Notes under the pieces: model-generated
Databases searched by the model: none
What the model was told of the DNA's origin: nothing
What the model saw: only the letters and a program-made list of their open reading frames with translations
Translations under genes and position numbers: made by a program
In this document: positions 7,460-49,719 of the stretch, one piece after another
How positions within the stretch are numbered: position 1 is the stretch's first letter
How the letters are laid out: each line of letters opens with the position of its first letter
Assembly: GCA_964487475.1 (NCBI GenBank)
Contig: CAZAPM010000006.1
Span: forward strand, 21,702-85,701
DNA: 64,000 bases
Direction of reading: 5' to 3'
From: an uncultured Planctomycetales bacterium
GTDB taxonomy: Bacteria > Omnitrophota > Gorgyraeia > Gygaellales > Profunditerraquicolaceae

Positions 7460-7978
7460 TTACTCCCCGCACATCCAGGTACCGGAGGCGTCGCGGTGGC
7501 ACAGCTGCCACGCCGGAGCATCATACCAGAGCTGGAAGGTATCCTTCTGCGCATTGGGGATATAATGGAACCCGCTGTGCTGGAATGCAGGCGCGGGGAT
7601 GGATTTAAGATGGTCAGGGATCAGGTCCTGCAGGGTCTCGGGAAGCCGGCCCTTGGTGCTGCGGTACTCCTGAATGGCGGAGAACACCCTGTTCCCGTCT
7701 ATCTGGGAGAATTCATGCAGATGCTTCCTGCGCTCGAAGGCCATGCCCCGCACCATGAAGAACGCGCCCGCGGCCAGCGCCACCAGCAGTATCCCGGCGA
7801 TATTGCGCCGCACAAAGGAGGCGGCGATAAGCAGCAGAGAAATGATCCCGACACCCAGGAGAAAAAGCCCCATGAGCGCGGAGAAAATGAATCCGATCGC
7901 CATCACCGATGAGAAATAGAAAAATCCGACCGCGACCAGCACCAGCCCCAGGTACACCAGATACAGCCAATTGCCCAT
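7460..7978 (-). CDS. Uncharacterized membrane protein (3 TM helices plus soluble Cys-containing C-terminal domain) in the hyd maturase operon
   Basis: 172 aa ORF between the TM1266-like regulator gene and hydG, with short gaps on both sides. Hydrophobic N-terminal half. Confidence 0.5.
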   Translation of the reverse strand: MGNWLYLVYLGLVLVAVGFFYFSSVMAIGFIFSALMGLFLLGVGIISLLLIAASFVRRNIAGILLVALAAGAFFMVRGMAFERRKHLHEFSQIDGNRVFSAIQEYRSTKGRLPETLQDLIPDHLKSIPAPAFQHSGFHYIPNAQKDTFQLWYDAPAWQLCHRDASGTWMCGE

Positions 7979-12305: not shown

Positions 12306-12788
12306 TTAACCCTCTTTCTTGCTGTTGCCGTACTGCGAAAGGATATCCATCACTTCGCTTTTCTTGACCTTGCCGTAGACCTTATCGTCGATCATGATGA
12401 CCGGAGAAAGTCCGCAGCATCCCAGGCAGCGCACCACGTCGAGCTGGAAAAGCTTGTCCTTGGTGCTCCCCCCCTCCTCCACGTTCAGGATGGTCTTGAT
12501 CTCGTTGAGGATGACCGGGGCTCCCTTGAGGTAGCAGGCGGTCCCCATGCACACCGCGATCTTATGCTTGCCCGGAGCCTCCAGCTTGAAAAAATTATAG
12601 AAGGTGATGACCTCGTAGATGCGCGCCAGCGGCACGCCGAGTATCTTGGAGAGCTCCAGCGCTGCCGGCCGGGGCACATACCCGTAATGATTCTGCAGCT
12701 CGTGCAGGATCATGATCAGGTTGCCCTGCTTGTCCTTCCACTTGCTGGCCAGTAAGGCGATCTCTTGCTTTACTTCCTGCGGATCCAT
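12306..12788 (-). CDS. hydC: NuoE-like 24 kDa subunit HydC
   Basis: Thioredoxin-like 2Fe-2S motifs (CMGTACYLKG ... CLGCCGLSP). Start moved to the internal ATG (MDPQEVKQ) behind an AGGAG RBS. The TTG-initiated extension in the track was rejected. Confidence 0.75.
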   Translation of the reverse strand: MDPQEVKQEIALLASKWKDKQGNLIMILHELQNHYGYVPRPAALELSKILGVPLARIYEVITFYNFFKLEAPGKHKIAVCMGTACYLKGAPVILNEIKTILNVEEGGSTKDKLFQLDVVRCLGCCGLSPVIMIDDKVYGKVKKSEVMDILSQYGNSKKEG

Positions 12789-12829
12789 AGGTTTCGCTCC
12801 TGTAAAAATTTCGGGGGACTTCGTTACTT

Positions 12830-12847
12830 TGTGAAAACTATCACAAA
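12830..12847 (-). promoter_or_regulatory. Rex operator (TTGTGAA-N4-ATCACAA) in the hydC-fdx-hydB-hydA leader
   Basis: TTGTGAAAACTATCACAA read directly, with one mismatch to TTGTGAAnnnnTTCACAA. Lies just downstream of the -10. Confidence 0.55.
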
Positions 12848-12877
12848 TCGGCGATAAAAAAAATAATAGTGCAGTTA

Positions 12878-12906
12878 TACTACCTTTCTTCCGGTTCCCT
12901 GTCAAG
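12878..12906 (-). promoter_or_regulatory. Sigma70-type promoter of the hydCBA operon
   Basis: Minus-strand TTGACA - 17 bp - TAGTAT. Confidence 0.5.
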
Positions 12907-17862: not shown

Positions 17863-18930
17863 CTATATTACCTTTTCTATGATACCGCCCCCTACCACTA
17901 TGTCCTGGCGGTAGAAGACTGCGGATTGACCGGGAGTAACGGCAAACTGCGGGGTTTTGAATATGACCTTGAGCGAACCTTTCCCAGGGACAACCTCGGC
18001 AGGTGCTTGGGGGTGATTATACCGTATCTTGACATCCAGGGCAACCTTCTTTTTGAACGGCTCCCCGGAAAAATGCACCTGCGAGACCAGGCACTCCCTG
18101 GAACTCGCCTGCTCCCGCGTGCCGACGACCACCGTATGAGAGGCGGCATCCAGGGAAACCACGTATGCGGGTTTTCCCAGCGCCACTCCCAGGCCCTCAC
18201 GCTGGCCGATGGTATAAAAAGCCACCCCCTGGTGCCGGCCGACGATTCTGCCCTCCACCGTCCGGATCGGCCCGGGTGCCGCCTTGTACCCCCTGCGGCG
18301 GAGGAATGAGCGGTAGTCATTGTCCGGAAGGAAACATATCTCCTGGCTGTCGGGCTTCTCCGCCACCGGCAGATGCAGGCTTCTCGCCAGCTCCCGGATC
18401 CGGGATTTGGTGAATGCGCCGATAGGGAACATCAGCCGGGAAAGCTCCTTCTGGCCCGCCCGGTAGATAAAATAGGACTGGTCCTTGCGCGGGTCTTTTC
18501 CCCGGGCCAGGAAACGGTTTGTGGTGCGGCGCACGATGCGGGCGTAATGGCCGGTCGCCAGGTGCGTGGCGCCGATCGCCTGCGCCTTGGCCAGCAGGGC
18601 CTCGAACTTGACGAACTGGTTGCAGCGCACGCAGGGATTGGGAGTGCGGCCCAGGGAGTATTCGGAGAGGAAATCCGCGATCACCTTGTCGTTTAAGTGC
18701 CGCTGCATGTTCAGCACATAGTGCCTGATCCCCAGGGCGGAGGCGACCCGGCGCGCATCCTCGATCGCCTGCACTCCGCAGCAGCTCGGATGCGCCCCCT
18801 CTCCATCGGAAAGATTAAAGCACATGGTCAGTCCGACCACTTCGAATTTTTTTTGCACCAGGAGCGCCGCGGCCACGGAGGAATCCACCCCTCCGCTCAT
18901 GGCCACCGCCACTCGGCGGGGTCTTTTCAT
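17863..18930 (-). CDS. mnmA: tRNA-specific 2-thiouridylase
   Basis: SGGVDSS PP-loop, NPCVRCN, and catalytic QEICF. Confidence 0.85.
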   Translation of the reverse strand: MKRPRRVAVAMSGGVDSSVAAALLVQKKFEVVGLTMCFNLSDGEGAHPSCCGVQAIEDARRVASALGIRHYVLNMQRHLNDKVIADFLSEYSLGRTPNPCVRCNQFVKFEALLAKAQAIGATHLATGHYARIVRRTTNRFLARGKDPRKDQSYFIYRAGQKELSRLMFPIGAFTKSRIRELARSLHLPVAEKPDSQEICFLPDNDYRSFLRRRGYKAAPGPIRTVEGRIVGRHQGVAFYTIGQREGLGVALGKPAYVVSLDAASHTVVVGTREQASSRECLVSQVHFSGEPFKKKVALDVKIRYNHPQAPAEVVPGKGSLKVIFKTPQFAVTPGQSAVFYRQDIVVGGGIIEKVI

Positions 18931-18948
18931 GCGGGTATTATACCAGCC

Positions 18949-20112
18949 TTACAGGTAATTTACCACCACCAGCTTGCCGCACTTCCTGATCTTTTCCGCA
19001 AGCAAAGGCACCACATCGAGGCGCGGCAGGATACCCAGCTCCTTGAACAGGATGGATTCATTGGCCGGATTAGGGGCGCGCCCCACCCAGAAGACGATAT
19101 GGTCCGCTTCCCGGATCATCTCGCAGAACCGGCTGACCCCCGAATCCGGCTGGTAGTTGCGCGGGTCCTCGTCGAAGATGTTGCAGACGCGGTTCAAGGT
19201 AAAAGCCCCCTCGGTGACAAGATCCACGCCATTGATGTAATACCTCGGGGGCTCAAAATAGTTTCCCAGCTCCTCCTGCACCTGCATGGAGATACCCAGC
19301 GACCGCGAGACGATCTCGGCGGTAGTGGACCCGCAGATGATCTTCGGGCCCTCCAGGTCCATGAACTCCTGCACCACGGCGCGGTCATGGTGCGGGGAAA
19401 GGGGCGGCCCGCTCAGGATAGTGAGGGGCTTTCCCGGACGGCTGGTGATAAGGCAGGCCGTGGCATCGTCATGGAACACGCCCTGCGAATACTCGCCCGC
19501 CTGGGCCAGCACGTACTCCGGCACGTCCCGCATGGCGCGCGATTCGGCGATGCACTTGTTGACAAAATCCCTCACCCCTTCGCTCGTCCAGCCCAGGCGC
19601 AGGGTCTGGCCCATGCCCGCCTGGGATATCCCGTCGGAAAAAAGCAGCAGGTGCTGCTGATGGTGCAGTGTCAGGTGCGCCTGGCCCAGCACTTCCCCTC
19701 CCAGGGTGAAAAAATGCTGCGGCAGGATACAGGCGCGCGAATCCTGGATCGCCACCGGCGCGGGCATCTCATAGGTCAGGACCGAAGCGCTGCCGTCGTT
19801 CAGCACCCGGACCAGGCAGAACGCGGAAAAAGGGATATCCTCGGTGCGGGCCTGGTGCATGGTCTGCATCAGGCTTTCGCACGTCTTCATCAGGGATACG
19901 CCGCGGCGCATGAGCTCCATCATCCGGGAGGCGCATAAGGTCGCGGCGACATGCGCCTTGATCCCGCTGCCCAGCCCGTCGCAAAGGAGCACGGTGGTAG
20001 CCTCGGGGGTGCGCTCCGTGACCGCCAGGTCGCCGCACACGGAATGCTCCCCCTTAGCCGCCTGCGCCATGGCGACGTCAATATGGGTATAGCCTTTCTG
20101 CACGGAGTTCAT
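18949..20112 (-). CDS. PP2C/SpoIIE-type serine/threonine phosphatase with an uncharacterized C-terminal domain
   Basis: GDL ... DGLGSG ... FSDG PP2C motifs. ATG at 20112 overlaps the hydS stop (ATGA). Confidence 0.65.
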   Translation of the reverse strand: MNSVQKGYTHIDVAMAQAAKGEHSVCGDLAVTERTPEATTVLLCDGLGSGIKAHVAATLCASRMMELMRRGVSLMKTCESLMQTMHQARTEDIPFSAFCLVRVLNDGSASVLTYEMPAPVAIQDSRACILPQHFFTLGGEVLGQAHLTLHHQQHLLLFSDGISQAGMGQTLRLGWTSEGVRDFVNKCIAESRAMRDVPEYVLAQAGEYSQGVFHDDATACLITSRPGKPLTILSGPPLSPHHDRAVVQEFMDLEGPKIICGSTTAEIVSRSLGISMQVQEELGNYFEPPRYYINGVDLVTEGAFTLNRVCNIFDEDPRNYQPDSGVSRFCEMIREADHIVFWVGRAPNPANESILFKELGILPRLDVVPLLAEKIRKCGKLVVVNYL

Positions 20113-21857
20113 CACTGCTTCTCCTGCTGGCTGATGAGCTTGTTGATCAGCTCTTCGGAACGGGCGGTGCTCTCCCCCAGGAACTGCGCCAGTTTCTGCG
20201 CCATCCCGATCTGATGGCGCAGCAGGTCCTTGGCCTGCGCCTGGGTCTCCTCCTTCAGCTTCGCCAGCTGGGCCTGATTGTTCTGGTACTTCGTGACGTC
20301 GACGAAGATCCCCACGAAATGCCGGTCGTCGCGCATGGCGTACATCTGCTGGTGGCACACCAGATTATAGGACGCGTGGCGCACGGTTTCCTCCAGCTGG
20401 TCCACCGTGCCGGCAGCCAGCTTCTCGAAGGGCGCCGGGTCCATCAGACAGGAAACGTGCTTGCCGATCAGGGCATCGGAACAGACGAAGAACCTGCGGA
20501 ACGAAGGGTTCATGCTCATGATATGCAGCCCCTCGTCGAGGGTCACGATCCCGTTCGGGCTGGTCTCGATGATACGGTCGGTGCGCCGCTCCGCCAGCCG
20601 GCGCATGTACGGCATGCACATGGAAACCTCCGCCATGCCCCGCACCACGGCCTGAGCCTTTTCCCGGCAGGTCGCGTACCCGCACGCTCCGCAGTTAAGC
20701 TCGTCCTCTGCCGCATATTTGCCCGTGCGCGCGAGGACCTGCGCGATCTCCTCCGGAGCGACCTCGCGCAGCGCTTCGGGCGCGGCGGCATACTGCGCCC
20801 GCAGCTGCGGCATGGTCAGCGCGCCCTCCGTCACGGCAGGAGCCTCGGCGGCGGAAAAGCTGCGGGAGTGCACGTACTCCAGAAGCTTGCCCTTGCGCTC
20901 GAAGACGTTCGTCCCGGAAGGGACTCCCGGCCCGTTGATACACCCCTGGGAGCAGAACAGCGGCTCGACCAGCGAGAACGCCTCTCCGGAACCCCGGCGC
21001 GCGACCTCGTCCAGGGCCTCCTTGACCTCCTGCGGCCCGCTGACGTGCGTCAGCTCGCGATGCATTCCTCCGTGGTCAAGGTGCGCCGCCTTCAAAAGCC
21101 CTCCGGGAAGCGCAAAGAACCTCGCCTCCGCAAGGGCATCTCCGTCAAAACCGCTCTCCTCGCAATTGGCCAGCACCACACCCCGCCTCGCGAACCACTC
21201 CTCCAGCTCCTGGAAGGTCAGCACCACCTCGACCAATCCCTTATACTCCGGCCGCTGGGCCTCGATCTTCTTGGCCACGCAGGGGCCGATAAACACCACC
21301 CGCGCATGCTGCCCCAGCCTCGCCTTGAGATATTTCGCATGGGCGATCATGGGAGAGACCACCTGCACCAGGGTGCCGGCCAGCTCGGGACGGTACCGCT
21401 CGACGTAATGCACCACCGCCGGACAGGCAGTGCACACCTGCGCCCGCGCGCCGGATGCCTGCGCCGCCTGTATGGTCGCCGACGCCACCTCACCCGCACC
21501 CCGGGCGGTCTCATGCACTTCGGCGAACCCCAGCGCCCTAAGCGCCGACGCGAGTCTAGAGCGCTGCCAGGGAGTGTACACCGCGGCATACGAAGGCGCG
21601 ACCGAAGCCGCCACCGGGACCTTCAGCTCGAGCAGATCCTGCGCCAGGTCGATATCCATACGGTAGGTCTTGGCCCCCTGCGGGCACTCCCGGATGCAGG
21701 TGCCGCAGCCGAGGCACAGGCGCTCATCCACATATGCCTGGCCCTCGCGCATGCGTATGGCCTTGACCGGGCAGACCCGCAGGCACCGGTAACAGTCACG
21801 GCACCGGGCGCTTAAGGTAAAGACCACCTGCCTGGGGTGCTGCAGCATCTCAGCCAT
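20112..21857 (-). CDS. hydS: Sensory [FeFe]-hydrogenase (HydS-type)
   Basis: N-terminal 2x[4Fe-4S]. The H-domain has variant motifs CTACPAV (vs TSCCPxW), GPCVAKKIE (vs MPCxxKxxE, Met to Gly) and EPLFCSQGCINGPG (vs ExMxCxxGC). An extra CGACGYATC cluster and a C-terminal PAS domain follow. Confidence 0.75.
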   Translation of the reverse strand: MAEMLQHPRQVVFTLSARCRDCYRCLRVCPVKAIRMREGQAYVDERLCLGCGTCIRECPQGAKTYRMDIDLAQDLLELKVPVAASVAPSYAAVYTPWQRSRLASALRALGFAEVHETARGAGEVASATIQAAQASGARAQVCTACPAVVHYVERYRPELAGTLVQVVSPMIAHAKYLKARLGQHARVVFIGPCVAKKIEAQRPEYKGLVEVVLTFQELEEWFARRGVVLANCEESGFDGDALAEARFFALPGGLLKAAHLDHGGMHRELTHVSGPQEVKEALDEVARRGSGEAFSLVEPLFCSQGCINGPGVPSGTNVFERKGKLLEYVHSRSFSAAEAPAVTEGALTMPQLRAQYAAAPEALREVAPEEIAQVLARTGKYAAEDELNCGACGYATCREKAQAVVRGMAEVSMCMPYMRRLAERRTDRIIETSPNGIVTLDEGLHIMSMNPSFRRFFVCSDALIGKHVSCLMDPAPFEKLAAGTVDQLEETVRHASYNLVCHQQMYAMRDDRHFVGIFVDVTKYQNNQAQLAKLKEETQAQAKDLLRHQIGMAQKLAQFLGESTARSEELINKLISQQEKQ

Positions 21858-23853
21858 TGCCCATCTCCTGCGTAAGCACTGCCGTTGCCTTCTCCAGGGT
21901 GCATTTTTCCAATACCTGGGAGTTGATCCTCACCACCGGCCCGCGGTCGCACTTCTCGAAACAGAACGACGCTTTGACCTCGACCGCGTCCTTCCACCCC
22001 TTCTCCGCGATGTGCGCGATCAGGGATCTGAAAAGCTTCTGCGCGCCCTTGAGGAAACACCCCGTGCCGAAACACACTTCCACTTCCATCTTCTTCACCT
22101 GGGGCTGCGCCAGGGTCAGCGCCTTTTTCACCACCCGGCGCCGGCTTTTATACCCGGTGTGCAGCAGTTCGTGCACCCGGTGGCCGGCGTGCCCCTTGAA
22201 CACGTTCTTATAAAGCTCCTGGACATACGGGTTCTCCTGCGCCTTGTGCAGCTGCAGCATCTTGTCGTTCTCGTAAAGCCCGCGCGTACGCTTCTGCCGC
22301 ACCCCCGGGTCCTTGTACACCGGCTGGCCGGCCCCGCCGATACATCCGCCCGGACAGGCCATGACCTCGATAAGGTCGAAGGCATAGATCCCTTTACGCA
22401 CCCCCTCGAGCACTTTCTTCGCGTTGGCCAGGCCGTGCGCGATCCCCAAGGTATACTCGCGCCCGTTGACCGCGAGGGTCGCCTGCCTGATCCCCTGCTC
22501 CCCGCGGACCATGGCGAACTCGTACGTATCCCGCGTATCCGCGGCCAGCTTCTCCGACACGTAGCGCAGCACCGCCTCGCTCACCCCGCCGGTGTTGCCG
22601 AAGATCACTCCGGCGCCGGTCTTGAAGCCGAAGGGCAGGTCGAAGGACTCCGGCTCGAGCTCCTCGAAACGCAGCCCCGCCTCCTCGATCATGCGCGCCA
22701 GTTCCTGCGTGGTGATGACGTGGTCCACATCGTAAAGCCCGTCCCGGGAGAACTCCTCCCGCTTGGCCTCGAACTTTTTCGCGGTGCAGGGCATCAGGGA
22801 GACCACGACCAGGTCCTCCCGCTTCACCTTCAGCGCCTCGGGCAAAAGCTCCTTGGCGAGCGACCCGAACATCTGCTGCGGAGAACGGCAGGTGGACACG
22901 TGCGGCAGGAAATCGGGATAATACTGCTCAACGAACTTCACCCACGCCGGGCAGCAGGAGGTCAGCAAAGGCAGGGGCGCGCGCTCCTTGATGCGCCCGA
23001 TAAACTCGTTGCCCTCTTCGATCACGGTCAAGTCCGCGGTAAAGGAAGTATCGAACACCTTGTCGAAGCCCATCGCCCGCAGCGCCGCCACGATCTGCCC
23101 GGTCGCCGAAACCCCGGGGGCCAGGCCGAAGAGCTCGCCGATCGCGACGCGCACGGCAGGCGCGATCTGCACTACCACGGTCTTCCCGGGATCGTCCAGC
23201 GCTTTCCAGACCTCCTCCACTTCGGAACGGGGGGTCAGGGCTCCGGTGGGACAGACCCGCGCGCACTGGCCGCAGTTGACGCACTCCACTTTATCCAGGT
23301 TCTTGCCGAAGGACGGCACCACCATGGACTGTGACCCGCGGTGGGCGAAATCGATGGCGCCCACTCCCTGCACCTCCTCGCACATGCGCACGCAATCGCC
23401 GCAGAGCACGCACTTGTTCGGGTCGCGCACGAGAGAGCGGCTGGAGCAATCCACCGCACGCGCCGGGGCCTGGGACTTGAAGCGCACCTTCTTGACCCCC
23501 AGGCGGCGGGCCAGGTTCTGCAGCTGGCAGGTCGAGCTCTTGGCGCAGGTAGGGCACGCCTGCTCATGGGATGCCAGCAATAGCTCCACGATGATCCTGC
23601 GCATGCTGCGGATCTCCTCGGTATTGGTCCTCACCTTCATCCCCGCTTCGGCGATGGTGGAACACGACGGCACCAGCCCTTTGCCCTCGATATCCACCAT
23701 GCACAGACGGCAGGCGCCGTACACAGAGAGCTCCGAATGGTAGCAGAACGTCGGCAGCTCGATCTTCGCCTTGCGGATCACCTCCAGCAGATTGCGCTCC
23801 CCGTTCAGGGGAAGCTCTTTGTTATCTATGGTAATGTGCGCCGTGGTCTTCAT
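21850..23853 (-). CDS. hydA: [FeFe]-hydrogenase catalytic subunit HydA2 with fused C-terminal thioredoxin-like [2Fe-2S] domain
   Basis: TSCCPAW, MPCTAKKFE and EVMACPGGCIGGAGQP. C-terminal extension with CFGTGCFLKG ... CFEKC. Confidence 0.9.
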   Translation of the reverse strand: MKTTAHITIDNKELPLNGERNLLEVIRKAKIELPTFCYHSELSVYGACRLCMVDIEGKGLVPSCSTIAEAGMKVRTNTEEIRSMRRIIVELLLASHEQACPTCAKSSTCQLQNLARRLGVKKVRFKSQAPARAVDCSSRSLVRDPNKCVLCGDCVRMCEEVQGVGAIDFAHRGSQSMVVPSFGKNLDKVECVNCGQCARVCPTGALTPRSEVEEVWKALDDPGKTVVVQIAPAVRVAIGELFGLAPGVSATGQIVAALRAMGFDKVFDTSFTADLTVIEEGNEFIGRIKERAPLPLLTSCCPAWVKFVEQYYPDFLPHVSTCRSPQQMFGSLAKELLPEALKVKREDLVVVSLMPCTAKKFEAKREEFSRDGLYDVDHVITTQELARMIEEAGLRFEELEPESFDLPFGFKTGAGVIFGNTGGVSEAVLRYVSEKLAADTRDTYEFAMVRGEQGIRQATLAVNGREYTLGIAHGLANAKKVLEGVRKGIYAFDLIEVMACPGGCIGGAGQPVYKDPGVRQKRTRGLYENDKMLQLHKAQENPYVQELYKNVFKGHAGHRVHELLHTGYKSRRRVVKKALTLAQPQVKKMEVEVCFGTGCFLKGAQKLFRSLIAHIAEKGWKDAVEVKASFCFEKCDRGPVVRINSQVLEKCTLEKATAVLTQEMGNG

Positions 23854-25749
23854 CTATGCCCCCCTGGTGATCGCCTTGAATTTGCATGTAGTGACGCACG
23901 CGCCGCATTTGACGCAGGCGGCCGCATCGATGCGGTGCGGCTTTCCCTTCTCCCCGCTGATCGCGCCGGCAGGACAGGCGCGGCCGCATAACGTACATCC
24001 CTTGCACAACGCCTCCGCGATCGCATACTTCGCGAGGGCCTTGCACCTTCCGGCAGGGCAATGCTTATGCTCGACGTGCGCATCGTATTCTTCCCGGAAA
24101 TACTTGAGCGTCGCGAGCACGGGGTTGGGCGCGGTCTTTCCCAGCCCGCACAAGGACCCCTTCTGCACCGCCACCGCCAATGACCGCAGCACCTCGATCG
24201 TCTCCCTGGTCGCACGCCCTTCGATGATATCGTCCAGCAGCACCAGCATCTGCTTGGTGCCTTCCCGGCAGAGCACGCATTTTCCGCAGGACTCGTTCTG
24301 GGTGAACTGCATGAAAAACCGGGCGATACTGACCATACAGGTATCGCTGTTCATCACCACCAGCCCTCCCGACCCGACCATCGCCCCGGCTTTACGCAGA
24401 GAATCGAAATCCAGAGGAAGGTCAAGGTGGTCGGAGGTAAGACATCCTCCCGAAGGCCCTCCGATCTGCACCGCCTTGAAGGCTTTTTCGGCGATGGTCC
24501 CGTCGTCAGAGGTCACCCCTCCGGCGATCGAGAAGACCACCTCCCGCAGGGTCGTGCCGAAAGGCACTTCGATCAGCCCGGTATTGGCCACGTGGCCGGT
24601 AATGGCAAAGGTCTTGGTGCCGGGAGAATTGGCGGTCCCCTTCTTACGGAACTCCTCCACCCCTTCCCGCAGGATAAGGGGCACGGTAGCCAACGTCTCG
24701 ACGTTATTGATGACCGTGGGTTTGCCCCAAAGGCCGCTTTGCGCCGGGAACGGAGGCTTCGGCGAAGGCATGCCGCGCTTCCCCTCAACGGAGGCGATCA
24801 GCGCCGTTTCCTCGCCGCAGACGAACGCCCCTGCTCCCTCCATCACCTGCACGGAGAACGCCTGCTCCGTACCGAAGACATTCTTCCCCAGCACGCCCAT
24901 CTCCTGCGCATCCTTAACCGCCTTGCGCATGCGACGCACCGCCAAGGGATACTCGGTACGCACGTAGACCACGCCTTCGTCCGCGCCGATGGCCCGGGCG
25001 GCGATAAGCATCCCCTCGAGCACGCTGTGCGGATTGCCCTCCATGACGCTGCGGTCCATGAACGCGCCCGGATCCCCTTCATCCCCGTTGCAAATGACGT
25101 ATTTTTTTGTGCCCGGCTGCACCCGGGTGATATCCCATTTCTTCCCCGCGGGGAATCCGCCGCCTCCCCGCCCGCGCAGTCCGGACGCGCTGATCAGATC
25201 GCAGATATCCTTGGCCGACATCTCCCGGTACGCCTTCGCAGCCGCCGCATACCCGCCTTTGTGCACGTATTCGCGGATATCCTCGGGATCGATGAGCCCG
25301 CACTCCTTGAGCACATAACGGTGCTGCTTTTTATAAAAGGGTATTTCCTGCGGCCCGGCGCACGCCTGGCGGGTGGATGGCTCGAGATACAGCAGCCGCG
25401 TGACCAGCTCGCCTTTGACCAGGGTCGTGTCGATGATCTCATCCACATCCCCGGCTTTGACCTTGGTATACAGGATATTCTCGGGAAGGATGGTCACCAG
25501 CGGGCCCATCTGGCAGAACCCCTGACAGCCGCTCTTCGAAACGTACGCGCCCCGGGACTCCTCCTTCAGCTCGACGCAGAAAGGCAACCCCTTTTCCTTA
25601 AGCCTCCGGATAAGGGTGTCGTATACTTTCAGGGAGCCGCCGGCCACGCACCCCGTGCCGGCGCATACCACTACCCGGCGGGTGCAGGCATGCAGCGCGG
25701 CGTGCACCTCCCGGGCGATCCCGGGGATATCAAGCGACTCGGGCTTCAT
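23854..25749 (-). CDS. hydB: NADH-binding subunit HydB2 (NuoF-like with N-terminal Cys4 thioredoxin-like domain)
   Basis: N-terminal CAGTGC ... CQGFC. NuoF core (GGGGFPAG). C-terminal 2x[4Fe-4S]. Confidence 0.85.
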   Translation of the reverse strand: MKPESLDIPGIAREVHAALHACTRRVVVCAGTGCVAGGSLKVYDTLIRRLKEKGLPFCVELKEESRGAYVSKSGCQGFCQMGPLVTILPENILYTKVKAGDVDEIIDTTLVKGELVTRLLYLEPSTRQACAGPQEIPFYKKQHRYVLKECGLIDPEDIREYVHKGGYAAAAKAYREMSAKDICDLISASGLRGRGGGGFPAGKKWDITRVQPGTKKYVICNGDEGDPGAFMDRSVMEGNPHSVLEGMLIAARAIGADEGVVYVRTEYPLAVRRMRKAVKDAQEMGVLGKNVFGTEQAFSVQVMEGAGAFVCGEETALIASVEGKRGMPSPKPPFPAQSGLWGKPTVINNVETLATVPLILREGVEEFRKKGTANSPGTKTFAITGHVANTGLIEVPFGTTLREVVFSIAGGVTSDDGTIAEKAFKAVQIGGPSGGCLTSDHLDLPLDFDSLRKAGAMVGSGGLVVMNSDTCMVSIARFFMQFTQNESCGKCVLCREGTKQMLVLLDDIIEGRATRETIEVLRSLAVAVQKGSLCGLGKTAPNPVLATLKYFREEYDAHVEHKHCPAGRCKALAKYAIAEALCKGCTLCGRACPAGAISGEKGKPHRIDAAACVKCGACVTTCKFKAITRGA

Positions 25750-26236
25750 CTTCCTGCTCCTTCCTGATCACTTCGTCTATAAGCGCCGCGGCGAGCGCCG
25801 GGGTCATCTGCCCGTGGACCTCGTCGTTGAGCACCACTGCCGGGGCCAGGCCGCAGGCGCCCAGGCAGGAGACGGTCTCCAGGGTAAAAAGCATGTCCGG
25901 GGTCGTGGTCTGCCCGTCGGATAATCCCAGCTTGCGCTGCAGCGCGTCCAAAATGGCGGTGGACTTCTTCACATGGCAGGCCGTGCCGTCGCACACCCGG
26001 ATCACGTACTTGCCTTTGGGGGTCAGGGTGAAATGGGAGTAGAACGTGGCCACTCCGTAGACCTTCGCCGGAGAAAGCCCGAGGGAGGTCGCGATGAAAG
26101 TCAGGATCTCCTCCGGGAGATACCGGTACTCCTCCTGCACCGCCTGGAGGATGGGGATGAGCTTGGCCGGATCATGGTCATACCTGGCCAGGATCTCGCA
26201 GAGTTTATGGAATTTATGCAACGCGTCGTTTTTCAT
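25730..26236 (-). CDS. hydC: NuoE-like subunit HydC2
   Basis: CDGTAC ... CLGACGLAP motifs. 168 aa. Confidence 0.8.
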   Translation of the reverse strand: MKNDALHKFHKLCEILARYDHDPAKLIPILQAVQEEYRYLPEEILTFIATSLGLSPAKVYGVATFYSHFTLTPKGKYVIRVCDGTACHVKKSTAILDALQRKLGLSDGQTTTPDMLFTLETVSCLGACGLAPAVVLNDEVHGQMTPALAAALIDEVIRKEQEDEARVA

Positions 26237-26247
26237 CGGTATACCCC

Positions 26248-26919
26248 TTATTTCATCCCGGTCTTCAGCGCCGTGCTCAGGCGCTTCGAGAGCACTGCCA
26301 GGGAAGATGCCAGATTCTCGTGCTGTACGATCACCCCTTCCCGCACGCTGATGCGGTAAGGGGAAAAATTCCAGATCCCCTTGATCCCGGCGGCGATCAT
26401 GGTGTCCGCCACGGCCTGGGCCTGGGCGGAGGGGACGGTCAGGATGCCGATCTTCACTTTCATGCGGCGGGTGAGGTCTTCCAGTTTCGCCAGGTCGAAG
26501 ATCTTCTTCCCGTGGAACTCCCGGCCGATCTTTCTTTTATCCACGTCGAAGGCGGCCACGATGTTAAGGCCGTAATCCTTGAACCCCTGATATCCCAGGA
26601 GCGCCAATCCGAGGTTCCCGGCGCCGATCAGGAAGGCGTCGGCGGCGTTATCCCACCCCAGGAAATTCTCGATAGCCTTGATCAGGACGTCCGTCTGGTA
26701 CCCCACCTTGGGCTTGCCCGCCACGCCCGTGACCTCCAGGTCCTTGCGCACCTGGATGGGAGTAAGCCCCAGGGCTTCCGCGATCTGCGTGCAGGAGACG
26801 ACGTTCTTTTCCTCCGCCAGGATATTCTTGAGGTACTGGTTGTAGATCGGCAGCCGGCGCAGGCTCGGTTCCGGCACTCCCTTGAAAACCTCCTGGTTAT
26901 CCATCGCGCTTACCGTCAT
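26248..26919 (-). CDS. rex: Redox-sensing transcriptional repressor Rex
   Basis: N-terminal winged helix plus Rossmann GAGNLG. Lies 11 bp upstream of hydC2. Confidence 0.85.
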   Translation of the reverse strand: MTVSAMDNQEVFKGVPEPSLRRLPIYNQYLKNILAEEKNVVSCTQIAEALGLTPIQVRKDLEVTGVAGKPKVGYQTDVLIKAIENFLGWDNAADAFLIGAGNLGLALLGYQGFKDYGLNIVAAFDVDKRKIGREFHGKKIFDLAKLEDLTRRMKVKIGILTVPSAQAQAVADTMIAAGIKGIWNFSPYRISVREGVIVQHENLASSLAVLSKRLSTALKTGMK

Positions 26920-26970
26920 CCCCGCCTCCTTGTAAAGAGAACTCGCAATCGGTATATTTTTATCAATAAA

Positions 26971-26999
26971 AGTATATCGATATAATTTTATCTTGTCAA
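26971..26999 (-). promoter_or_regulatory. Promoter of the rex-hydC2B2A2-hydS operon
   Basis: Minus-strand TTGACA - 17 bp - TATACT, overlapped by the 12-bp palindrome TATATCGATATA (26973-26984). Confidence 0.45.
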
Positions 27000-39706: not shown

Positions 39707-40897
39707 CTACGCGCGAAGCTGCTGCGCGAACTTCTGACCCCAGGCATAGCACTGCGCAAGCTGCGCCTGGTCCGGAACGTACTGAACGCTCATCGACTCC
39801 TGAGGCAGAGCGACACCGGTCTCGGCAAGCAATTTCTCGATCTCCTTGACCGCGCCTCCGGCCCACCCATAGGAGCCGAACACCCCGGCGAGACGGCCCT
39901 TAGGCTTCAAGCCTTTGAAATACTCCAGGAAACCGGCGATGATGATAAGCATATCGTTATCATGGGTGGAAGAACCGAAGACGAACCCCTTGGCATCCAG
40001 CATCTCGGTGATGATCTCGGTGGAATTGGATACCGCGATATCGTAGAGCTGCACGCGTACCCCCGCATCGGCGATGCCCTGAGCGATTGCCCTGGCCATC
40101 ATGGCGGTCGAGCCCCACATGGTCTCGTAGACCACTACCGCCTTAGGGACCGTGGTATTGCCCGCCCAGCGCACGTATGCTTCGACGATCCCCGCCGGGT
40201 CCTTGCGCCAGATCACCCCGTGCGAAGGCGCGATCATATCGATGGGAAGCGCCATTTTCTGGAGGTCCTGCAGTTTCTTCAGGATTATGCCGCTCAAGGG
40301 CCAGAGGATATTGGCGTAATATTTCTTCGCCTCGTCCATCAGCACCGCCTGATCGACCTCGTCATCGAAACGCTCGGCCGTGGCCAGATGCTGTCCGAAG
40401 GCGTCATTGGGGAAGAGCACCTTTTCTTCGGGGCAATAGGTGAACATGGAATCCGGCCAGTGGATCATGGGCGCTTCGATGAAGGAAAGGGTACGAGAAC
40501 CTAAGGAGACCGTATCCCCGGTCTTGACCACCCGGAAATCGAACTTCCGGTGATAGACCTTCTCCAGCCCTTCCTGGCATTTCGCCGTACCCAGGAATTT
40601 CGCCCGGGGACAGAGCTCTGCCAGCTGGGGCAAACCCCCGGAATGGTCCGTTTCCACATGGTTGGCCACGATATAATCGATGCGCTCCAAAGGCACGATC
40701 TCCCTGATCCGATCGAGATGCTCTTTGACGAAAGGCCCGAAGACGCTGTCGATAAGCGCGATCTTCTCATCCACCACCAGATAGGAATTATACGTCGATC
40801 CCCGGCGGGTGGTATACGTGTTGCCGTGAAAGGTGCGAATATTCCAGTCCACCACTCCGACCCAGTATATGCCTTTTTTGATCTCTACCGGCTTCAT
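39707..40897 (-). CDS. fprA: Flavodiiron protein (rubredoxin:oxygen/NO oxidoreductase)
   Basis: Metallo-beta-lactamase diiron site (HVETDHSGG) followed by a flavodoxin domain. Confidence 0.85.
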   Translation of the reverse strand: MKPVEIKKGIYWVGVVDWNIRTFHGNTYTTRRGSTYNSYLVVDEKIALIDSVFGPFVKEHLDRIREIVPLERIDYIVANHVETDHSGGLPQLAELCPRAKFLGTAKCQEGLEKVYHRKFDFRVVKTGDTVSLGSRTLSFIEAPMIHWPDSMFTYCPEEKVLFPNDAFGQHLATAERFDDEVDQAVLMDEAKKYYANILWPLSGIILKKLQDLQKMALPIDMIAPSHGVIWRKDPAGIVEAYVRWAGNTTVPKAVVVYETMWGSTAMMARAIAQGIADAGVRVQLYDIAVSNSTEIITEMLDAKGFVFGSSTHDNDMLIIIAGFLEYFKGLKPKGRLAGVFGSYGWAGGAVKEIEKLLAETGVALPQESMSVQYVPDQAQLAQCYAWGQKFAQQLRA

Positions 40898-40919
40898 ACC
40901 TTCCCCCTTGCGCCCGAAA

Positions 40920-41771
40920 CTACTGCGCCAACCCGTCGATGATGCTCGCCATGATGAAATCGTTCATGCTCAGCCCCTTGGCCGCATGCGTCGTCAGGGT
41001 GACCTTGACCTTGTTCCAGGAGATCGTCAGCGTGGGATGATGCCCCTGTTCCTGCGCCGCCAGGGCGATCATATCCAGCAGGACCTTCGCGTCCGCGAAA
41101 TCGGAGCGGACGAACTCTTTGACCAGCTTTTTGCCTTCGACCAGCTCCCATCCCGGAGCGGCGGCTGCCAGCTCCCCGGCCTTCTGCGGGTCCAGCGCCT
41201 GAGCCGGGCCTTCGCACGCCACGCATTTGAGCACGGCTTCACGGTTGGAGGCTTTCCCCGGATCAGCCTGCACCTTCTGCAGGAACTCCAGCGCGGCATC
41301 ATAATCGGGCGCGTGAGTCACTTCCTCCACCACCTGCAGGTAACGGACGATATCCGCCCGGTCCACGATAAGCACTGCCCGGGCGAGAAGCCCCAGCTCC
41401 CGGATCAGCAGCCCGTAGTGCAACCCGAAGGAACGCGTGGCATAATCGGAGACCACCGTCACGGCACGGATGTCATGCTCGGAGCAGAAACGCTTCTGGG
41501 CGAAAGGCAGGTCCATGCTGATACCCACGATCGCCACATCCTGCCCCAGGGACGCCGCGCGCCTGTTGAACTCCTTGACCTGCAGGTCGCACACCGGCGT
41601 ATCCAGGGAAGGAAACGTGGTAAGCACCTTGATCTTTCCGGAGAAAGAATCCAAAGTCACGGAGGAAAGGTCCTGCGCGGTCACGGTGAAACGCGGCGCC
41701 AGCCCCCCCACCCGCACCTTGTGCCCGGCCAGGGTCAAGGGCGATCCCTTGAACGTAACGGTCTCGGCCAT
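40920..41771 (-). CDS. tpx: Thiol peroxidase (Tpx) fused to a pterin-4a-carbinolamine dehydratase (PCD/DCoH)-like domain
   Basis: N-terminal Tpx (TFPSLDTPVCDLQ ... peroxidatic Cys; resolving Cys). C-terminal about 100 aa is PCD-like (EGHHPTLTISWNKVKVTLTTHAAKGLSMNDFIMASIID). Confidence 0.7.
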   Translation of the reverse strand: MAETVTFKGSPLTLAGHKVRVGGLAPRFTVTAQDLSSVTLDSFSGKIKVLTTFPSLDTPVCDLQVKEFNRRAASLGQDVAIVGISMDLPFAQKRFCSEHDIRAVTVVSDYATRSFGLHYGLLIRELGLLARAVLIVDRADIVRYLQVVEEVTHAPDYDAALEFLQKVQADPGKASNREAVLKCVACEGPAQALDPQKAGELAAAAPGWELVEGKKLVKEFVRSDFADAKVLLDMIALAAQEQGHHPTLTISWNKVKVTLTTHAAKGLSMNDFIMASIIDGLAQ

Positions 41772-41781
41772 GCCGGCCTCC

Positions 41782-42273
41782 TTAGGCTCCCCTTCTGGCT
41801 AACTCGCGGTCCAGCATGATCAATGCCGGGCCTTCGGCTTTGAACATCTTCATGGTATCGATCACGTAGGTCGCGTTCTTCTCCTCTTCGACCTGCTCGG
41901 TGATGAACCACTGCAGGAACACCTGGGATGCGGTGTCCTTCGTCTCCAGCGCCAGCTTATAGAGGTCGTTGATCCACGCGGTCACTTTGCGTTCGTGCCC
42001 GAGGGCGGCCTGAAACACCGCCAGCGGAGAGGCGAATTCCGCCTCCGGCTCTCCCAAGGCCTGCAAATTCACCCTCACCCCGCGGTCGACGAGGAATTCG
42101 AACATCTTCATGGCATGGCCCTGCTCTTCCTTGGTCTGCACCTTCATCCAGTGGGCGAATCCCGGAAGGTTCACGGACTCGAAATACGCCGCCATGGAAA
42201 GGTAAAGATACGCCGAATAAAGCTCGTTCTTGATCTGGTCATTGAATGCCTTCTGAAGTTTCTTATCCATCAT
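41782..42273 (-). CDS. ftn: Ferritin (non-haem)
   Basis: ELYSAYLY ... EEQGHAMKMFEF ferroxidase residues. Start at the internal MMDKK. Confidence 0.85.
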   Translation of the reverse strand: MMDKKLQKAFNDQIKNELYSAYLYLSMAAYFESVNLPGFAHWMKVQTKEEQGHAMKMFEFLVDRGVRVNLQALGEPEAEFASPLAVFQAALGHERKVTAWINDLYKLALETKDTASQVFLQWFITEQVEEEKNATYVIDTMKMFKAEGPALIMLDRELARRGA

Positions 42274-42299
42274 GATCTCCTTGTTATGCGTATCGCGTA

Positions 42300-42695
42300 T
42301 TATTCGACTGAAACCTGCTTGCTGCTTTCCCAAAGGCCGTGGATATTGCAGTAGGACACGGCGATAAGCGTACCGGGCTTTTCGGTCTTGAAGGAGCAGA
42401 CCGCTGCCGGCACGGTGTATACGGTGCTGGTATTCGGCCCCTGCGCGGAAGCCCCGTGCGCGGCAAACTCATACCGCCCCAGCTGATAGGAGAATTTCTC
42501 ACCCTGGGGAAGGAAATAAAGGCTCGCCCAGGCGATGTGATGTTCCGTGGTATTGGGATGCGCGATCTCCCTGCCCACCGATACGGACACCTGGAGCGCT
42601 TCCCCTTTTTTGACCTTATCCGGAGCTTCTATGACCGGAACGTGCTTCTCGGTCTTCCAATCCGCGGACTGAACGATATCCTTTGCCGATGCCAT
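42300..42695 (-). CDS. sor: Superoxide reductase (desulfoferrodoxin/neelaredoxin family)
   Basis: KHVPVIE ... HPNTTEHHIAW ... C and H ligands for centre II. Confidence 0.8.
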   Translation of the reverse strand: MASAKDIVQSADWKTEKHVPVIEAPDKVKKGEALQVSVSVGREIAHPNTTEHHIAWASLYFLPQGEKFSYQLGRYEFAAHGASAQGPNTSTVYTVPAAVCSFKTEKPGTLIAVSYCNIHGLWESSKQVSVE

Positions 42696-42754
42696 AATGC
42701 CCTCCTTGAGTATCTTTTAAGTATACTGCGGAAGCGAATGCAAGTAAACCACTT

Positions 42755-43360
42755 TCACTCCAGCTTATCGCCGACCTTACCCACCAGGTCCTTGCCCGGA
42801 GTAAGGGTCTTATTCCCGGATTTCCACTTTGCCGGACACACCTGCGCAGGGTTGCCGCGCACATATTTGAACGCCTTGAGCTTGCGCATCAGCTCCTCCG
42901 CGTTGCGGCCGACAGGGAAATAATTGACCTCGGAGGCCATGAGGGTCCCGTCCGGATCGATCAGGAAGGTGCCCCGCAGCGCCAGGCCGCTGGCCTCATC
43001 ATACACCCCGAACGCCTTGGAAAGACTGTGCGTCGGGTCCGCCGCCATGGGGAAGGCGATGTGCGAAAGCATCTTTTCCGACCCGTGCCAGGCGTAATGC
43101 ACATAGTGCGTATCCGTGCTTACCGATACCAGCTCGGCGCCTTCCTTGACGATCTCCTCATACTTTTCCCCCACGTCCGCGAGTTCCGTCGGACAGACAA
43201 AGGTATAATCCGCAGGGTAGAAGAACAGCACCAGCCATCTGCCCTTTCCCGTGATCTCGGATACCTTCAACGACCCGAAATCCTTCTTCGCGGGCAGATA
43301 CACGTTCATCGCGAAATCAGGGACCTTATCCCCTATCTTCAACACGCAACTCTCATCCAT
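42755..43360 (-). CDS. ahpC: Peroxiredoxin (2-Cys AhpC/Prx1)
   Basis: FYPADYTFVCPTEL peroxidatic Cys and C-terminal resolving VCPAKW. Start at the ATG at 43360 behind an AAGGAGAGGG RBS. Confidence 0.85.
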   Translation of the reverse strand: MDESCVLKIGDKVPDFAMNVYLPAKKDFGSLKVSEITGKGRWLVLFFYPADYTFVCPTELADVGEKYEEIVKEGAELVSVSTDTHYVHYAWHGSEKMLSHIAFPMAADPTHSLSKAFGVYDEASGLALRGTFLIDPDGTLMASEVNYFPVGRNAEELMRKLKAFKYVRGNPAQVCPAKWKSGNKTLTPGKDLVGKVGDKLE

Positions 43361-43757
43361 GACCCTCTCCTTTTTTTGGGGCAGCGCATGCATGGCAGCG
43401 CCCGTACAGATCCACTCTCTGATAGGCGACCGAAAACTTGAACTTCCGGCGCGCCAGCTTGGCGAACTCCCCGCAGTGCGGCTCCTCGATATCCAGCACC
43501 CGCCCGCAGGAAAGGCACACCAGGTGGGAATGGTCCTGCACCGTGGCATCATACCGGCTGGGTTTCTTCCCGAACCCCAGCTCCACGATACTGCCCTCCT
43601 CCTGCAGCAGGCGGAGATTCCGGTAGATGGTCCCGAAGCTTACCGCGGGAATACGCTTGCGCACCATCCGGTAGAGGGTTTCCGCCGTAGGGTGCGTCTT
43701 GACCTTACGAAGCTCCTCCAGGATCATGCTGCGCTGCCGGCTCACCCTGCGTTGCAT
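43353..43757 (-). CDS. perR: Fur-family peroxide-responsive regulator (PerR-like)
   Basis: Fur fold with HxH, CxxC ... CxxC. Its end overlaps the ahpC start by 8 bp. Confidence 0.8.
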   Translation of the reverse strand: MQRRVSRQRSMILEELRKVKTHPTAETLYRMVRKRIPAVSFGTIYRNLRLLQEEGSIVELGFGKKPSRYDATVQDHSHLVCLSCGRVLDIEEPHCGEFAKLARRKFKFSVAYQRVDLYGRCHACAAPKKGEGHG

Positions 43758-43769
43758 CCGCCCTCCTCC

Positions 43770-43830
43770 TATTAACAGTAATGATTCTTATTATCAATAT
43801 ACTATACGAAAAAGGCCCCGGAGTCAATGA
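43770..43830 (-). promoter_or_regulatory. perR-ahpC promoter region with AT-rich Fur/PerR-box-like element
   Basis: Minus-strand TTGACT ... TATAGT, then ATTGATAATAAGAATCATTA before the GGAGGAGGG RBS. The operator assignment is tentative. Confidence 0.3.
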
Positions 43831-43846
43831 TTATTTTCCGGAGCCG

Positions 43847-44563
43847 TCAATACCCGACGAAATTCTCCGTTTTTACCGCCTGCGGATCGCAGCCTAAGGA
43901 GACGCACAGCGACTGCATCGCCTGCACCATGCGCGGAGGGCCGTAGATGAAGAAGGTCCGCTGCGCGATATCGCAGATATACCGCCTGACCGCCTGCTCG
44001 TCGATGACCCCGAAGACGCAGACATTATCCTTCGGCGGGCACTCGGAAACCAGATAAGACACGCGCATCCGCGGATTTCCCGCGGCCCATCCGTCGAGCT
44101 CCCTGCGGAAGGCGATATCCTCGTCGGTACGGTTGGAGTAGAGCAGGCAGATATCCGTGGGCAATCCCCGGGAGGCCACGTGCTCGACGATCGAGATCAC
44201 CGGCGTGATGCCGATCCCTCCGATGAGGAATCCGATCTTGCGCATCCCCTCTTCGAACACGCAGGTGCCCAGGGGCGCCTTGACCGAAAGCTCGTCCCCC
44301 GGCGAAAGCGCCTGCAGCTGCCGGGAAAAATCGCTCTGGCTCAAACGTTTGGTGAATTCGATGTAGCCCTTGCCCGGGGCGCAGGAAAAGGAAAGATATT
44401 TGTTCAAGAGCTTGTCCCCCGGGACGGCGGGATTGAACATCACCTGCAAGAACTGCCCGGGCAGGAAATCTATCTTTTCTTTGGAGACCGGCTCGCAGCG
44501 GAAGCTCTCCACTCCCGGCGCACGCACGATCCTCTCCCGCAGCCGCACCCGGTGCTCCTTCAT
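43847..44563 (-). CDS. FAD/NAD(P)-binding ferredoxin-reductase-like oxidoreductase
   Basis: FNR-like fold with RxYS FAD motif and GGIGITP NAD motif. Confidence 0.65.
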   Translation of the reverse strand: MKEHRVRLRERIVRAPGVESFRCEPVSKEKIDFLPGQFLQVMFNPAVPGDKLLNKYLSFSCAPGKGYIEFTKRLSQSDFSRQLQALSPGDELSVKAPLGTCVFEEGMRKIGFLIGGIGITPVISIVEHVASRGLPTDICLLYSNRTDEDIAFRRELDGWAAGNPRMRVSYLVSECPPKDNVCVFGVIDEQAVRRYICDIAQRTFFIYGPPRMVQAMQSLCVSLGCDPQAVKTENFVGY

Positions 44564-46726: not shown

Positions 46727-46736
46727 TCCCGCTCCC

Positions 46737-46775
46737 CTAAAAAAACACCGGATGCCGCATGAGCGGCACCCGGCG
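46737..46775 (-). terminator. Rho-independent terminator after hcp
   Basis: Minus-strand CCGGGTGCCGCTCATGCGGCATCCGG followed by TGTTTTTTT. Confidence 0.55.
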
Positions 46776-46801
46776 TAATGCTCCTGCGTGCGTTTATTAT
46801 A

Positions 46802-48094: not shown

Positions 48095-48098
48095 GATT

Positions 48099-49592: not shown

Positions 49593-49719
49593 AGTAGTAG
49601 GACGAAGGGGCCTTTTAACGTCGTGCCCAGGACATGCGACTGCAACCTTCCTTACATCGGGCAACAGGCCGCAGCATGAAATCAACTGTGATATCCATGT
49701 CTGCCTCCTTTCATCATAA

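Follow-up and report, generated by a model that had tools for sequence, protein, structure and literature searches.

A HydS-type [FeFe] hydrogenase and a PP2C phosphatase at the end of a rex-hydCBA operon in an Omnitrophota genome: a putative H2-sensing module

In a 64,000-nucleotide (nt) stretch of the genome of an uncultured Omnitrophota bacterium (contig CAZAPM010000006.1 of assembly GCA_964487475.1; hereafter the window, to which all positions refer), six open reading frames (ORFs) run on the minus strand from 26919 down to 18949, joined by overlaps or by gaps of no more than 12 nt. The first gene, rex (26919-26248), encodes a redox-sensing transcriptional repressor that responds to NADH/NAD+; it is followed by hydC (26236-25730), hydB (25749-23854) and hydA (23853-21850), which encode the subunits of an [FeFe] hydrogenase, and then by a gene for a putative sensory [FeFe] hydrogenase, HydS (21857-20112; 581 residues), and one for a SpoIIE-type PP2C phosphatase (20112-18949; 387 residues). 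The minus strand carries nearly all genes of the window, which has about 60% G+C. We consider it likely that the last two genes form a putative H2-sensing module of [FeFe] hydrogenase group C3, attached to a Rex-controlled HydABC operon.

The six genes are closely spaced and preceded by a single strong promoter. The 91-base pair (bp), AT-rich spacer upstream of rex holds an AAGGAGG ribosome-binding site, and with it the best sigma-70-like site between 17500 and 29200 (26971..26999, minus strand; TTGACA and TATACT separated by 17 nt, identical to the consensus at 11 of 12 positions). The start of hydS overlaps the stop of hydA by 8 nt. At the HydS/phosphatase junction, which reads CAG-TGA-TGA-AC, the HydS stop codon TGA (20114-20112) runs into the phosphatase ATG (20112-20110), itself preceded by AGGAG at a distance of 8 nt. 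The overlap described in a first-pass annotation of this DNA as ATGA is in fact 1 nt long (TGATG), or 4 nt (GTGA) if an in-frame GTG at 20115 serves as the start; the junction is a translational-coupling signature.

The proteins encoded upstream of the pair are those expected from the first reading, with Pfam and NCBIfam models identifying Rex, NuoE-, NuoF- and HydA-type products. HydC is a NuoE-like, thioredoxin-like [2Fe-2S] subunit (PF01257, E 4.5e-52; NuoE/HoxE models also match), and HydB a NuoF-like FMN/NADH subunit that begins with a 2Fe-2S domain and carries two [4Fe-4S] clusters at its C terminus (Pfam Complex1_51K, NADH_4Fe-4S and Fer4; 457 bits to nuoF_fam). HydA is a group A catalytic enzyme whose motifs TSCCP, MPCTAKK and EVMACPGGC are intact; it matches Fe_hyd_lg_C (E 1e-94), Fe_hyd_SSU and FeFe_hydrog_A (496 bits against a cut-off of 406), and reaches the NCBIfam A6 "NADH-dependent" model only at its threshold (765.3 against 765). 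A thioredoxin-like [2Fe-2S] domain (residues 584-661, 21853-22102, minus strand; PF01257) is fused to its C terminus. Gene content and motifs assign this HydABC to the group A3 type; the enzyme, which may be a bifurcating one, would be NADH-linked and probably ferredoxin-linked.

HydS, like all the features described below for it, lies on the minus strand. Its N-terminal ferredoxin-like domain carries two [4Fe-4S] clusters (residues 17-62, 21672..21809; two Fer4 matches), and the eight cysteines of the domain are all invariant among 30 relatives at 51-57% identity, the set by which conservation in HydS is judged throughout. The H-domain that follows (residues 82-310, 20928..21614; Fe_hyd_lg_C PF02906, E 9e-46) is complete, as first proposed for this ORF, and bears the motifs CTACP (L1, 21434-21420), GPCVAKK (L2, 21287-21267) and EPLFCSQGC (L3, 20966-20940). 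When aligned to solved HydA chains by HMMER, and to the window's own two group A HydA proteins by MAFFT, they fall opposite TSCCP, MPC..KK and E.MAC..GC, which bears out their earlier interpretation as sensory variants of the group A motifs. All four cysteine ligands of the H-cluster are kept and invariant: C145 in L1, C193 in L2, and C302 and C306 in L3. The L1 cysteine that had been reported lost is the proton-relay residue, C299 of CpI, replaced here by Ala144; M353, a methionine that helps to frame the diiron site, is replaced by Gly191, and M497 by Leu. Invariance extends to T143, A144, C145 and P146 of L1, to G191, P192, C193, K196 and K197 of L2, and to E298, L300, F301, C302, G305 and C306 of L3. 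The Cys with which CTACP begins varies among family members, and the invariant part of the motif is T-A-C-P.

C-terminal to the H-domain lies a further [4Fe-4S] site (residues 387-416, 20610..20699; PF04060 FeS, E 1e-11). The first-pass annotation was right to note an extra Cx2Cx4C motif there and described it incompletely, since the site, which contains CGACGYATC, has four cysteines, C389, C392, C397 and C414, in the order Cx2Cx4Cx16C, and all are invariant. Next comes a PAS domain (residues 427-522, 20292..20579), where PAS_8 matches residues 427-458. Scored on this one sequence, PAS_8 is above its cut-off and yet marginal (22.6-25.7 bits against 21.8), but PAS_8 and PAS_9 are matched by 17 of 17 HydS relatives, and a profile of the region retrieves the PAS structures 3fc7 (E 1e-5) and 4gcz; the predicted PAS domain, which had been noted before, is secure for the family though weak on the single sequence. 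The protein ends in a conserved helical tail of about 60 residues (523-581, 20115..20291) with the motifs QA.ELLEHQI.MAQ and FLGESTA. Its profile aligns with the coiled-coil linker between PAS and DHp domains in YF1 (4gcz) and with designed helical bundles, and the tail is probably a coiled-coil output or dimerization element.

The substitutions around the H-cluster invite the view that HydS uses its FeS clusters and PAS domain to sense not H2 but the cellular redox state (the ferredoxin or NADH pool), with the H-cluster site vestigial or structural. Loss of the proton pathway is consistent with this view, as are the tight linkage of the module to Rex, another redox sensor, and the finding that the C-terminal cluster of a related enzyme, TamHydS of Thermoanaerobacter mathranii, is unresponsive to H2 (PMC13104023). 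Against it stand the invariance of the H-cluster cysteines, of the L2 lysine pair and of the surrounding motifs across the 30 relatives, and the behavior of TmHydS (the Thermotoga maritima enzyme) and TamHydS, both of which take up the [2Fe] cofactor and are reactive toward H2 (PMC10055695; PMC8163306). The maturases HydE, HydF and HydG are, moreover, encoded in the same window, 13-18 kb from the HydS module. A purely redox-sensing HydS thus appears most improbable.

HydS is not a group A enzyme: it scores far under the curated NCBIfam cut-offs for group A (91 against 406 bits) and for group B (B1; 212 against 450), and shares just 28% identity with the H-domains of the window's two group A HydA proteins. 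Neither of the outcomes that the first-pass annotation had named as speaking against its proposal, placement among group A enzymes with intact TSCCP and MPC motifs or a missing PAS domain, was observed, and the sensory reading is supported, each of the sequence-level traits listed there for a sensory enzyme being present. By its domains, motifs and phosphatase linkage, HydS is probably a member of [FeFe] group C, i.e., M2f, or C3 "phosphatase-linked (putative)" in HydDB. In the published scheme, M2f corresponds to group C, carries PAS and includes TmHydS, while M2e corresponds to group D, lacks PAS and has Ser or Thr at M353; both carry Cx2Cx4Cx16C and lack C299 (PMC8163306). The M2e label suggested earlier is therefore inapplicable to a protein with a PAS domain, Gly at M353 and a phosphatase encoded downstream. 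Residue frequencies at the sensory positions have been compiled, with M353 replaced by Gly, Ser or Thr (PMC10055695); group C3 was defined as "phosphatase-linked (putative)" (PMC5037454), and the pair is also covered in PMC6776011 and PMC11406978. More than 6,700 relatives are found in 90%-identity clusters (E <= 1e-10), the closest other than the protein itself at about 56% identity, a distance that marks the lineage as poorly sampled. The class is already described and very common; the locus is a standard example of it and leaves the overall picture unchanged.

The phosphatase, correctly recognized in the first pass as a SpoIIE/PP2C protein encoded after HydS, is conserved end to end as a two-domain protein in a 43-sequence alignment; its gene and both domains lie on the minus strand. 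The SpoIIE/RsbU-type PP2C domain (residues 1-226, 19435..20112; SpoIIE, E 1e-12) retains the invariant PP2C metal ligands D28, D45-G46, D160 and D215-D216, and the enzyme is therefore probably active. The C-terminal domain (residues 227-387, 18949..19434) belongs to no Pfam family: neither Pfam nor NCBIfam offers a model for it, and the search for solved structures returned no close one. It is confidently modelled as a Rossmann-like alpha/beta fold that resembles, weakly, the Rossmann subdomains of NuoG and formate-dehydrogenase-type subunits, and is marked by the motifs LTGPP, CGSTTA, PP.Y, DLVTEGA.TLNQ, VG.A.NPAH and GKLV. An exhaustive profile search with this domain yielded 1,186 clusters at 50% identity, and among the matches listed it is C-terminal, occupying about positions 220-385 of proteins of some 380 residues. 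Other architectures were sought and none was present among the best 150 of the 1,186 clusters; the shorter matches look like fragments. On this evidence the domain of about 160 residues is taken to be a private appendage of the phosphatase family, neither STAS nor kinase. The family itself is large, with more than 5,000 relatives and at least 594 GTDB species representatives that encode the phosphatase, the closest among the GTDB representative matches listed being 47% identical.

The two-domain phosphatase also occurs without an upstream HydS in three loci, two from Planctomycetota and one from Bacteroidales, here designated L030 (2088-3470), L034 (4055-5314) and L037 (6349-7503). The L034 gene is preceded by one for a CheY-like response regulator, and such orphan contexts might hint at partners.

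The kinship of the PP2C domain, closest in fold to the RsbU/SpoIIE-type structures 3pu9, 5ucg and 3ke6, suggests that the module could be the input arm of an RsbU/SpoIIE-type partner-switching cascade, with the genes for its STAS antagonist and anti-sigma kinase located at some other place in the genome. Cascades of this type often have PAS-to-PP2C inputs, but the genes for the STAS and kinase components are usually adjacent. Pfam searches of essentially every plausible ORF found no HATPase_c, STAS, response-regulator or Ser/Thr-kinase domain in the 64-kb window, upholding the earlier report that it holds no kinase, STAS protein or response regulator, and neither STAS nor HATPase_c is conserved in the neighborhoods of 80 related loci. 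A partner-switching cascade therefore seems possible but unlikely.

These 80 neighborhoods, taken from species-representative genomes, set the module in context. Of the 78 loci in which adjacency could be judged, 75 have a HydS gene directly before the phosphatase gene, ending where the latter begins, the exceptions being two Planctomycetota loci and one from Bacteroidales. The exact order rex-hydC-hydB-hydA-hydS-PP2C recurs in at least 22 loci, and also in one 5.5-Mb genome, and spans Syntrophorhabdia and other "delta" lineages, Omnitrophota, Planctomycetota, Ignavibacteriales, Bacteroidales, Bacillota and Armatimonadota. Bacillota mostly show an hfsABCD-like arrangement, in which a small [2Fe-2S] protein, HydS and the phosphatase are followed by a hydrogenase of about 475 residues. 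A rex gene lies within 10 kb in 29 of the 80 loci, in several gene orders, among them a minimal rex-hydS-PP2C trio (L041).

All-versus-all clustering of the unassigned ORFs in the 80 loci recovered one widely shared family, the [2Fe-2S] protein of about 85 residues (C.GS.CH.KGS...FC.G.C), which is present in 37 mostly Bacillota loci directly upstream of HydS, sometimes in two copies; the next largest families reach at most nine loci each. The C-terminal [2Fe-2S] domain of the operon's HydA is homologous to this free protein, which suggests a recurring core made up of a [2Fe-2S] module, HydS and the phosphatase. Response-regulator/PAS proteins form a cluster found in eight loci, at variable positions, and were set aside as generic.

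Gene order of this kind would also suit a different role, in which HydS is a fourth, regulatory subunit of HydABC ("BfuT" in Hydrogenedentota) and the phosphatase acts post-translationally on the complex or on HydS, tuning enzyme activity rather than gene expression. The 8-nt overlap of hydS with hydA, and the fact that hydS always adjoins hydA in operons of this type, fit such a role, and the HydS-type protein has been treated as subunit "T" (PMC11406978). It gains further from the lack of any STAS protein, anti-sigma kinase or response regulator conserved within 10 kb across the 80 loci, and from the phosphatase's C-terminal domain, private to its family and faintly reminiscent of subdomains in NuoG and formate-dehydrogenase-type subunits. 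By contrast, the Bacillota pair of HydS and phosphatase does without HydABC and stands beside a monomeric hydrogenase or adhE, and Thermoanaerobacterium genetics reveal effects at the level of the adhE transcript (PMC5707799). We regard the subunit role as decidedly unlikely.

Rex at the head of the operon is secure: it scores 300 bits against NCBIfam NF003994 (cut-off 130), has the expected N-terminal winged-helix and Rossmann NADH domains (Pfam Put_DNA-bind_N and CoA_binding), aligns to the solved Rex 3wg9 with E 7e-40, and has a GAGNLG motif and the canonical recognition helix QVRKDL. A search upstream of rex for the canonical Rex operator TTGTGAA-N4-TTCACAA, with N4 or N6 spacing, found none within 3 mismatches. 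The sole canonical Rex box in the window, TTGTGAAAACTATCACAA (12829-12846, 1 mismatch), is positioned just upstream of the likely start of the other hydC, and Rex may control this second hydABC cluster rather than, or besides, its own operon.

What the rex promoter does contain is a tandem array of TATCGATA boxes (26947..26982, minus strand) with an exact 14-bp period, which overlaps the -10 region and is a candidate operator: box 1 is TATCGATA (26982-26975), box 2 TATTGATA (26968-26961) and box 3 a degenerate TACCGATT (26954-26947). Arrays of 2-4 boxes were found upstream of rex, hydC or adhE in 22 loci retrieved through their proteins, from several phyla (among them L003, L005, L006, L009, L016, L017, L019, L025, L026, L038 and L041). 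In 19 of the 22, the window included, the array is directly upstream of rex; in L069 it precedes adhE. The upstream regions hold 6.5 TATCGATA boxes per kb against a background of 0.49 per kb, an enrichment of about 13-fold, and 30 of the short spacings between boxes are exactly 14 bp. The array consensus is an 8-bp palindrome plus six AT-rich bases.

The arrays may be the operator of this Rex paralogue, or they may bind another regulator. Some Phycisphaerae loci carry a canonical Rex box and a TATCGATA array together. Reading the arrays as overlapping Rex-like TCGATAA-N4-TTATCGA palindromes was tried and abandoned: the geometry permits it, but the spacer bases are not conserved. A description of the TATCGATA operator was sought in the searchable literature and none was found.

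In metagenomes, perfect triple arrays occur at 63 loci, of which 15 adjoin rex and 2 an Fe-alcohol dehydrogenase; the remainder are in unrelated contexts, some of them phage-, plasmid- or satellite-like. Perfect 14-bp-period arrays were likewise seen outside hydrogenase loci in L085, L098, L136, L107, L108, L113, L120 and L127. Some of these non-hydrogenase arrays are long satellite-like runs at contig ends; others, in human-gut contigs, precede by about 46 bp the gene for a conserved protein of some 318 residues and are possibly mobile-element iterons. Rex promoters are therefore not the only setting of the TATCGATA motif.

How would the putative H2-sensing module work? By analogy with TmHydS, TamHydS, the Ruminococcus albus HydS and HfsB/HfsC of T. 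saccharolyticum, HydS would bind H2 and turn it over slowly at the H-cluster. A redox or conformational change would then pass to the C-terminal cluster, on to the PAS domain and the helical region, and from there to a bound phosphatase, held probably through its private C-terminal domain. The phosphatase would alter the phosphorylation state of some Ser/Thr phosphoprotein, which would in turn adjust the expression or activity of the hydrogenase and of fermentation enzymes, with Rex adding control by NADH/NAD+. Work on relatives is consistent with parts of this scheme. TmHydS has low activity and an altered H-cluster (PMC10055695); in R. albus, HydS with a phosphatase subunit is reported to be down-regulated 111-fold at low H2 (PMC6776011). 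In Thermoanaerobacterium, hfsB and hfsC have regulatory phenotypes (PMC5707799; PMC11837493), and deletions of hfsA/B and of hfsC/D give opposite ones (PMC5707799).

Several observations weigh against this scheme. Reviews call the H2-sensing role of the whole class putative (PMC8924675), and no member is known to signal H2, be it in vivo or in vitro. The C-terminal cluster of TamHydS, a group D enzyme, is not reduced by H2 (PMC13104023), which undercuts a simple redox relay through the corresponding cluster here; the same study names the finding of interaction partners as a critical gap. A gene for a phosphatase substrate was sought and none was found nearby, either in the window or in about 80 related loci. 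Within 10 kb across the 80 loci, conservation extends to Rex but to no other regulator, no kinase and no STAS protein, so that the output half of the mechanism is conjecture. Finally, no terminator-like site was found on the minus strand 3' of the phosphatase gene, where mnmA starts 18 nt downstream (18930-18949), so that the operon may extend beyond the phosphatase gene.

A further variant deserves mention, doubtful as it is: HydS and its phosphatase may act on Rex, the only DNA-binding protein to accompany the pair in several different gene orders, or on an unlinked factor, rather than on a conventional partner-switching cascade, so that H2 and NADH/NAD+ would be integrated at the tandem TATCGATA operator, with the private Rossmann-like domain as a docking or ligand-binding element.

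How anaerobes sense H2 matters for fermentation balance and syntrophy, for methane from the rumen and gut, and for biofuel strains. The foremost candidates for the sensor are the [FeFe] group C enzymes, for which no output pathway is known. The window contributes an example that is clean and complete, with rex, hydCBA, hydS, the phosphatase and hydEFG together, from a lineage that has been little sampled. For experimental work, the by-products of the comparison may prove more useful than the locus, which by itself does not make the output of HydS-type sensors easier to trace: a dedicated two-domain phosphatase with an unannotated C-terminal domain, its near-universal adjacency to HydS, the absence of a conserved kinase or STAS partner nearby and the tandem TATCGATA promoter element, which could serve as DNA bait to capture the regulator.

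The features noted in the rest of the window are again on the minus strand. Transcription of the operon may continue into mnmA, nadA and rluA-like genes, none of which is a conserved neighbor elsewhere. A second [FeFe] hydrogenase island (12905-2347) comprises a NuoE-like hydC (12306-12905, read 12905-12306), a gene for a 116-residue 2Fe-2S ferredoxin-like protein (12300-11950), hydB (11931-10189), a group A hydA (10219-8438), a gene for a TM1266-family "iron-only hydrogenase system regulator" (8231-7980), hydG (7447-6062), hydE (6075-4969), an aspartase/fumarase-like lyase gene (about 5000-3584) and hydF (about 3600-2347). Between the TM1266-like regulator and hydG is an ORF of 172 residues (7460-7978) with a coding-like third-position G+C fraction (GC3) of 0.78, for which Pfam and NCBIfam returned no match. 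Farther away, an anaerobe's oxygen/nitrosative stress cluster (39707-49685) encodes a flavodiiron-type protein (ODP and flavodoxin domains), peroxiredoxins, a ferritin-like protein, desulfoferrodoxin (42695-42300), a hybrid-cluster protein (48094-46802) and an Rrf2-family regulator (49685-49188).

Among characterized proteins, a close counterpart of HydS is TmHydS (group C, M2f), which has the same domain order, two [4Fe-4S] clusters, H-domain, Cx2Cx4Cx16C and PAS, and is likewise encoded beside a bifurcating HydABC (PMC10055695; PMC8163306). The substitutions are also shared, C299 being replaced by Ala (A144 here, A131 in TmHydS) and M353 by Gly (G191 here, G177 in TmHydS), while the M497 position, known to vary, is Leu here and Ser in TmHydS. 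A Thermotogota proxy from Fervidobacterium (L055) shares only 30% identity with the HydS of the window; its motifs include TTSCP and EASACIGGC, and its gene order differs, running hydS, PP2C, hydC, hydB, hydA, rex. TamHydS (group D, M2e) shares the N-terminal clusters, an H-domain without C299 and the Cx2Cx4Cx16C site, and adjoins a bifurcating-type hydrogenase, as does the HydS of the window; unlike TamHydS, the latter has a PAS domain, Gly at M353 and a downstream phosphatase.

At the level of the whole module, there is no difference in kind from the HydDB C3 or "BfuT" systems of Hydrogenedentota and Thermodesulfobacteriota, in which the same PAS-bearing enzyme is encoded beside a Ser/Thr phosphatase and an A3 hydABC (PMC5037454; PMC11406978). 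The same pair recurs in the R. albus HydS cluster and in the Thermoanaerobacterium hfsABCD cluster, where HfsB is HydS-like and HfsC a Ser phosphatase; the Bacillota phosphatase belongs to the same two-domain family, at about 380-390 residues. HydS proteins of the R. albus/Thermoanaerobacterium type are about 31% identical to that of the window. There the pair accompanies a monomeric hydrogenase (HfsD/HydA2) and adhE, and the thioredoxin-like [2Fe-2S] module is a free protein of about 85 residues encoded upstream of HydS; in the window, the pair ends a rex-hydCBA operon and the module is fused to the C terminus of HydA.

The partner-switching phosphatases RsbU, RsbP and SpoIIE differ from the phosphatase described here, which has no STAS protein or anti-sigma kinase encoded nearby, carries its regulatory module, a unique one, at the C terminus, and would take its input from a separate hydrogenase-PAS protein. 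The [NiFe] system HoxBC-HoxJ-HoxA (group 2b) follows the same logic, from a crippled hydrogenase through a PAS-type domain to phospho-signaling that controls hydrogenase genes. Its proteins are unrelated to those of the window, and its output, which has been demonstrated experimentally, is a histidine kinase with a response regulator, in contrast to the Ser/Thr phosphatase that would serve this purpose here.

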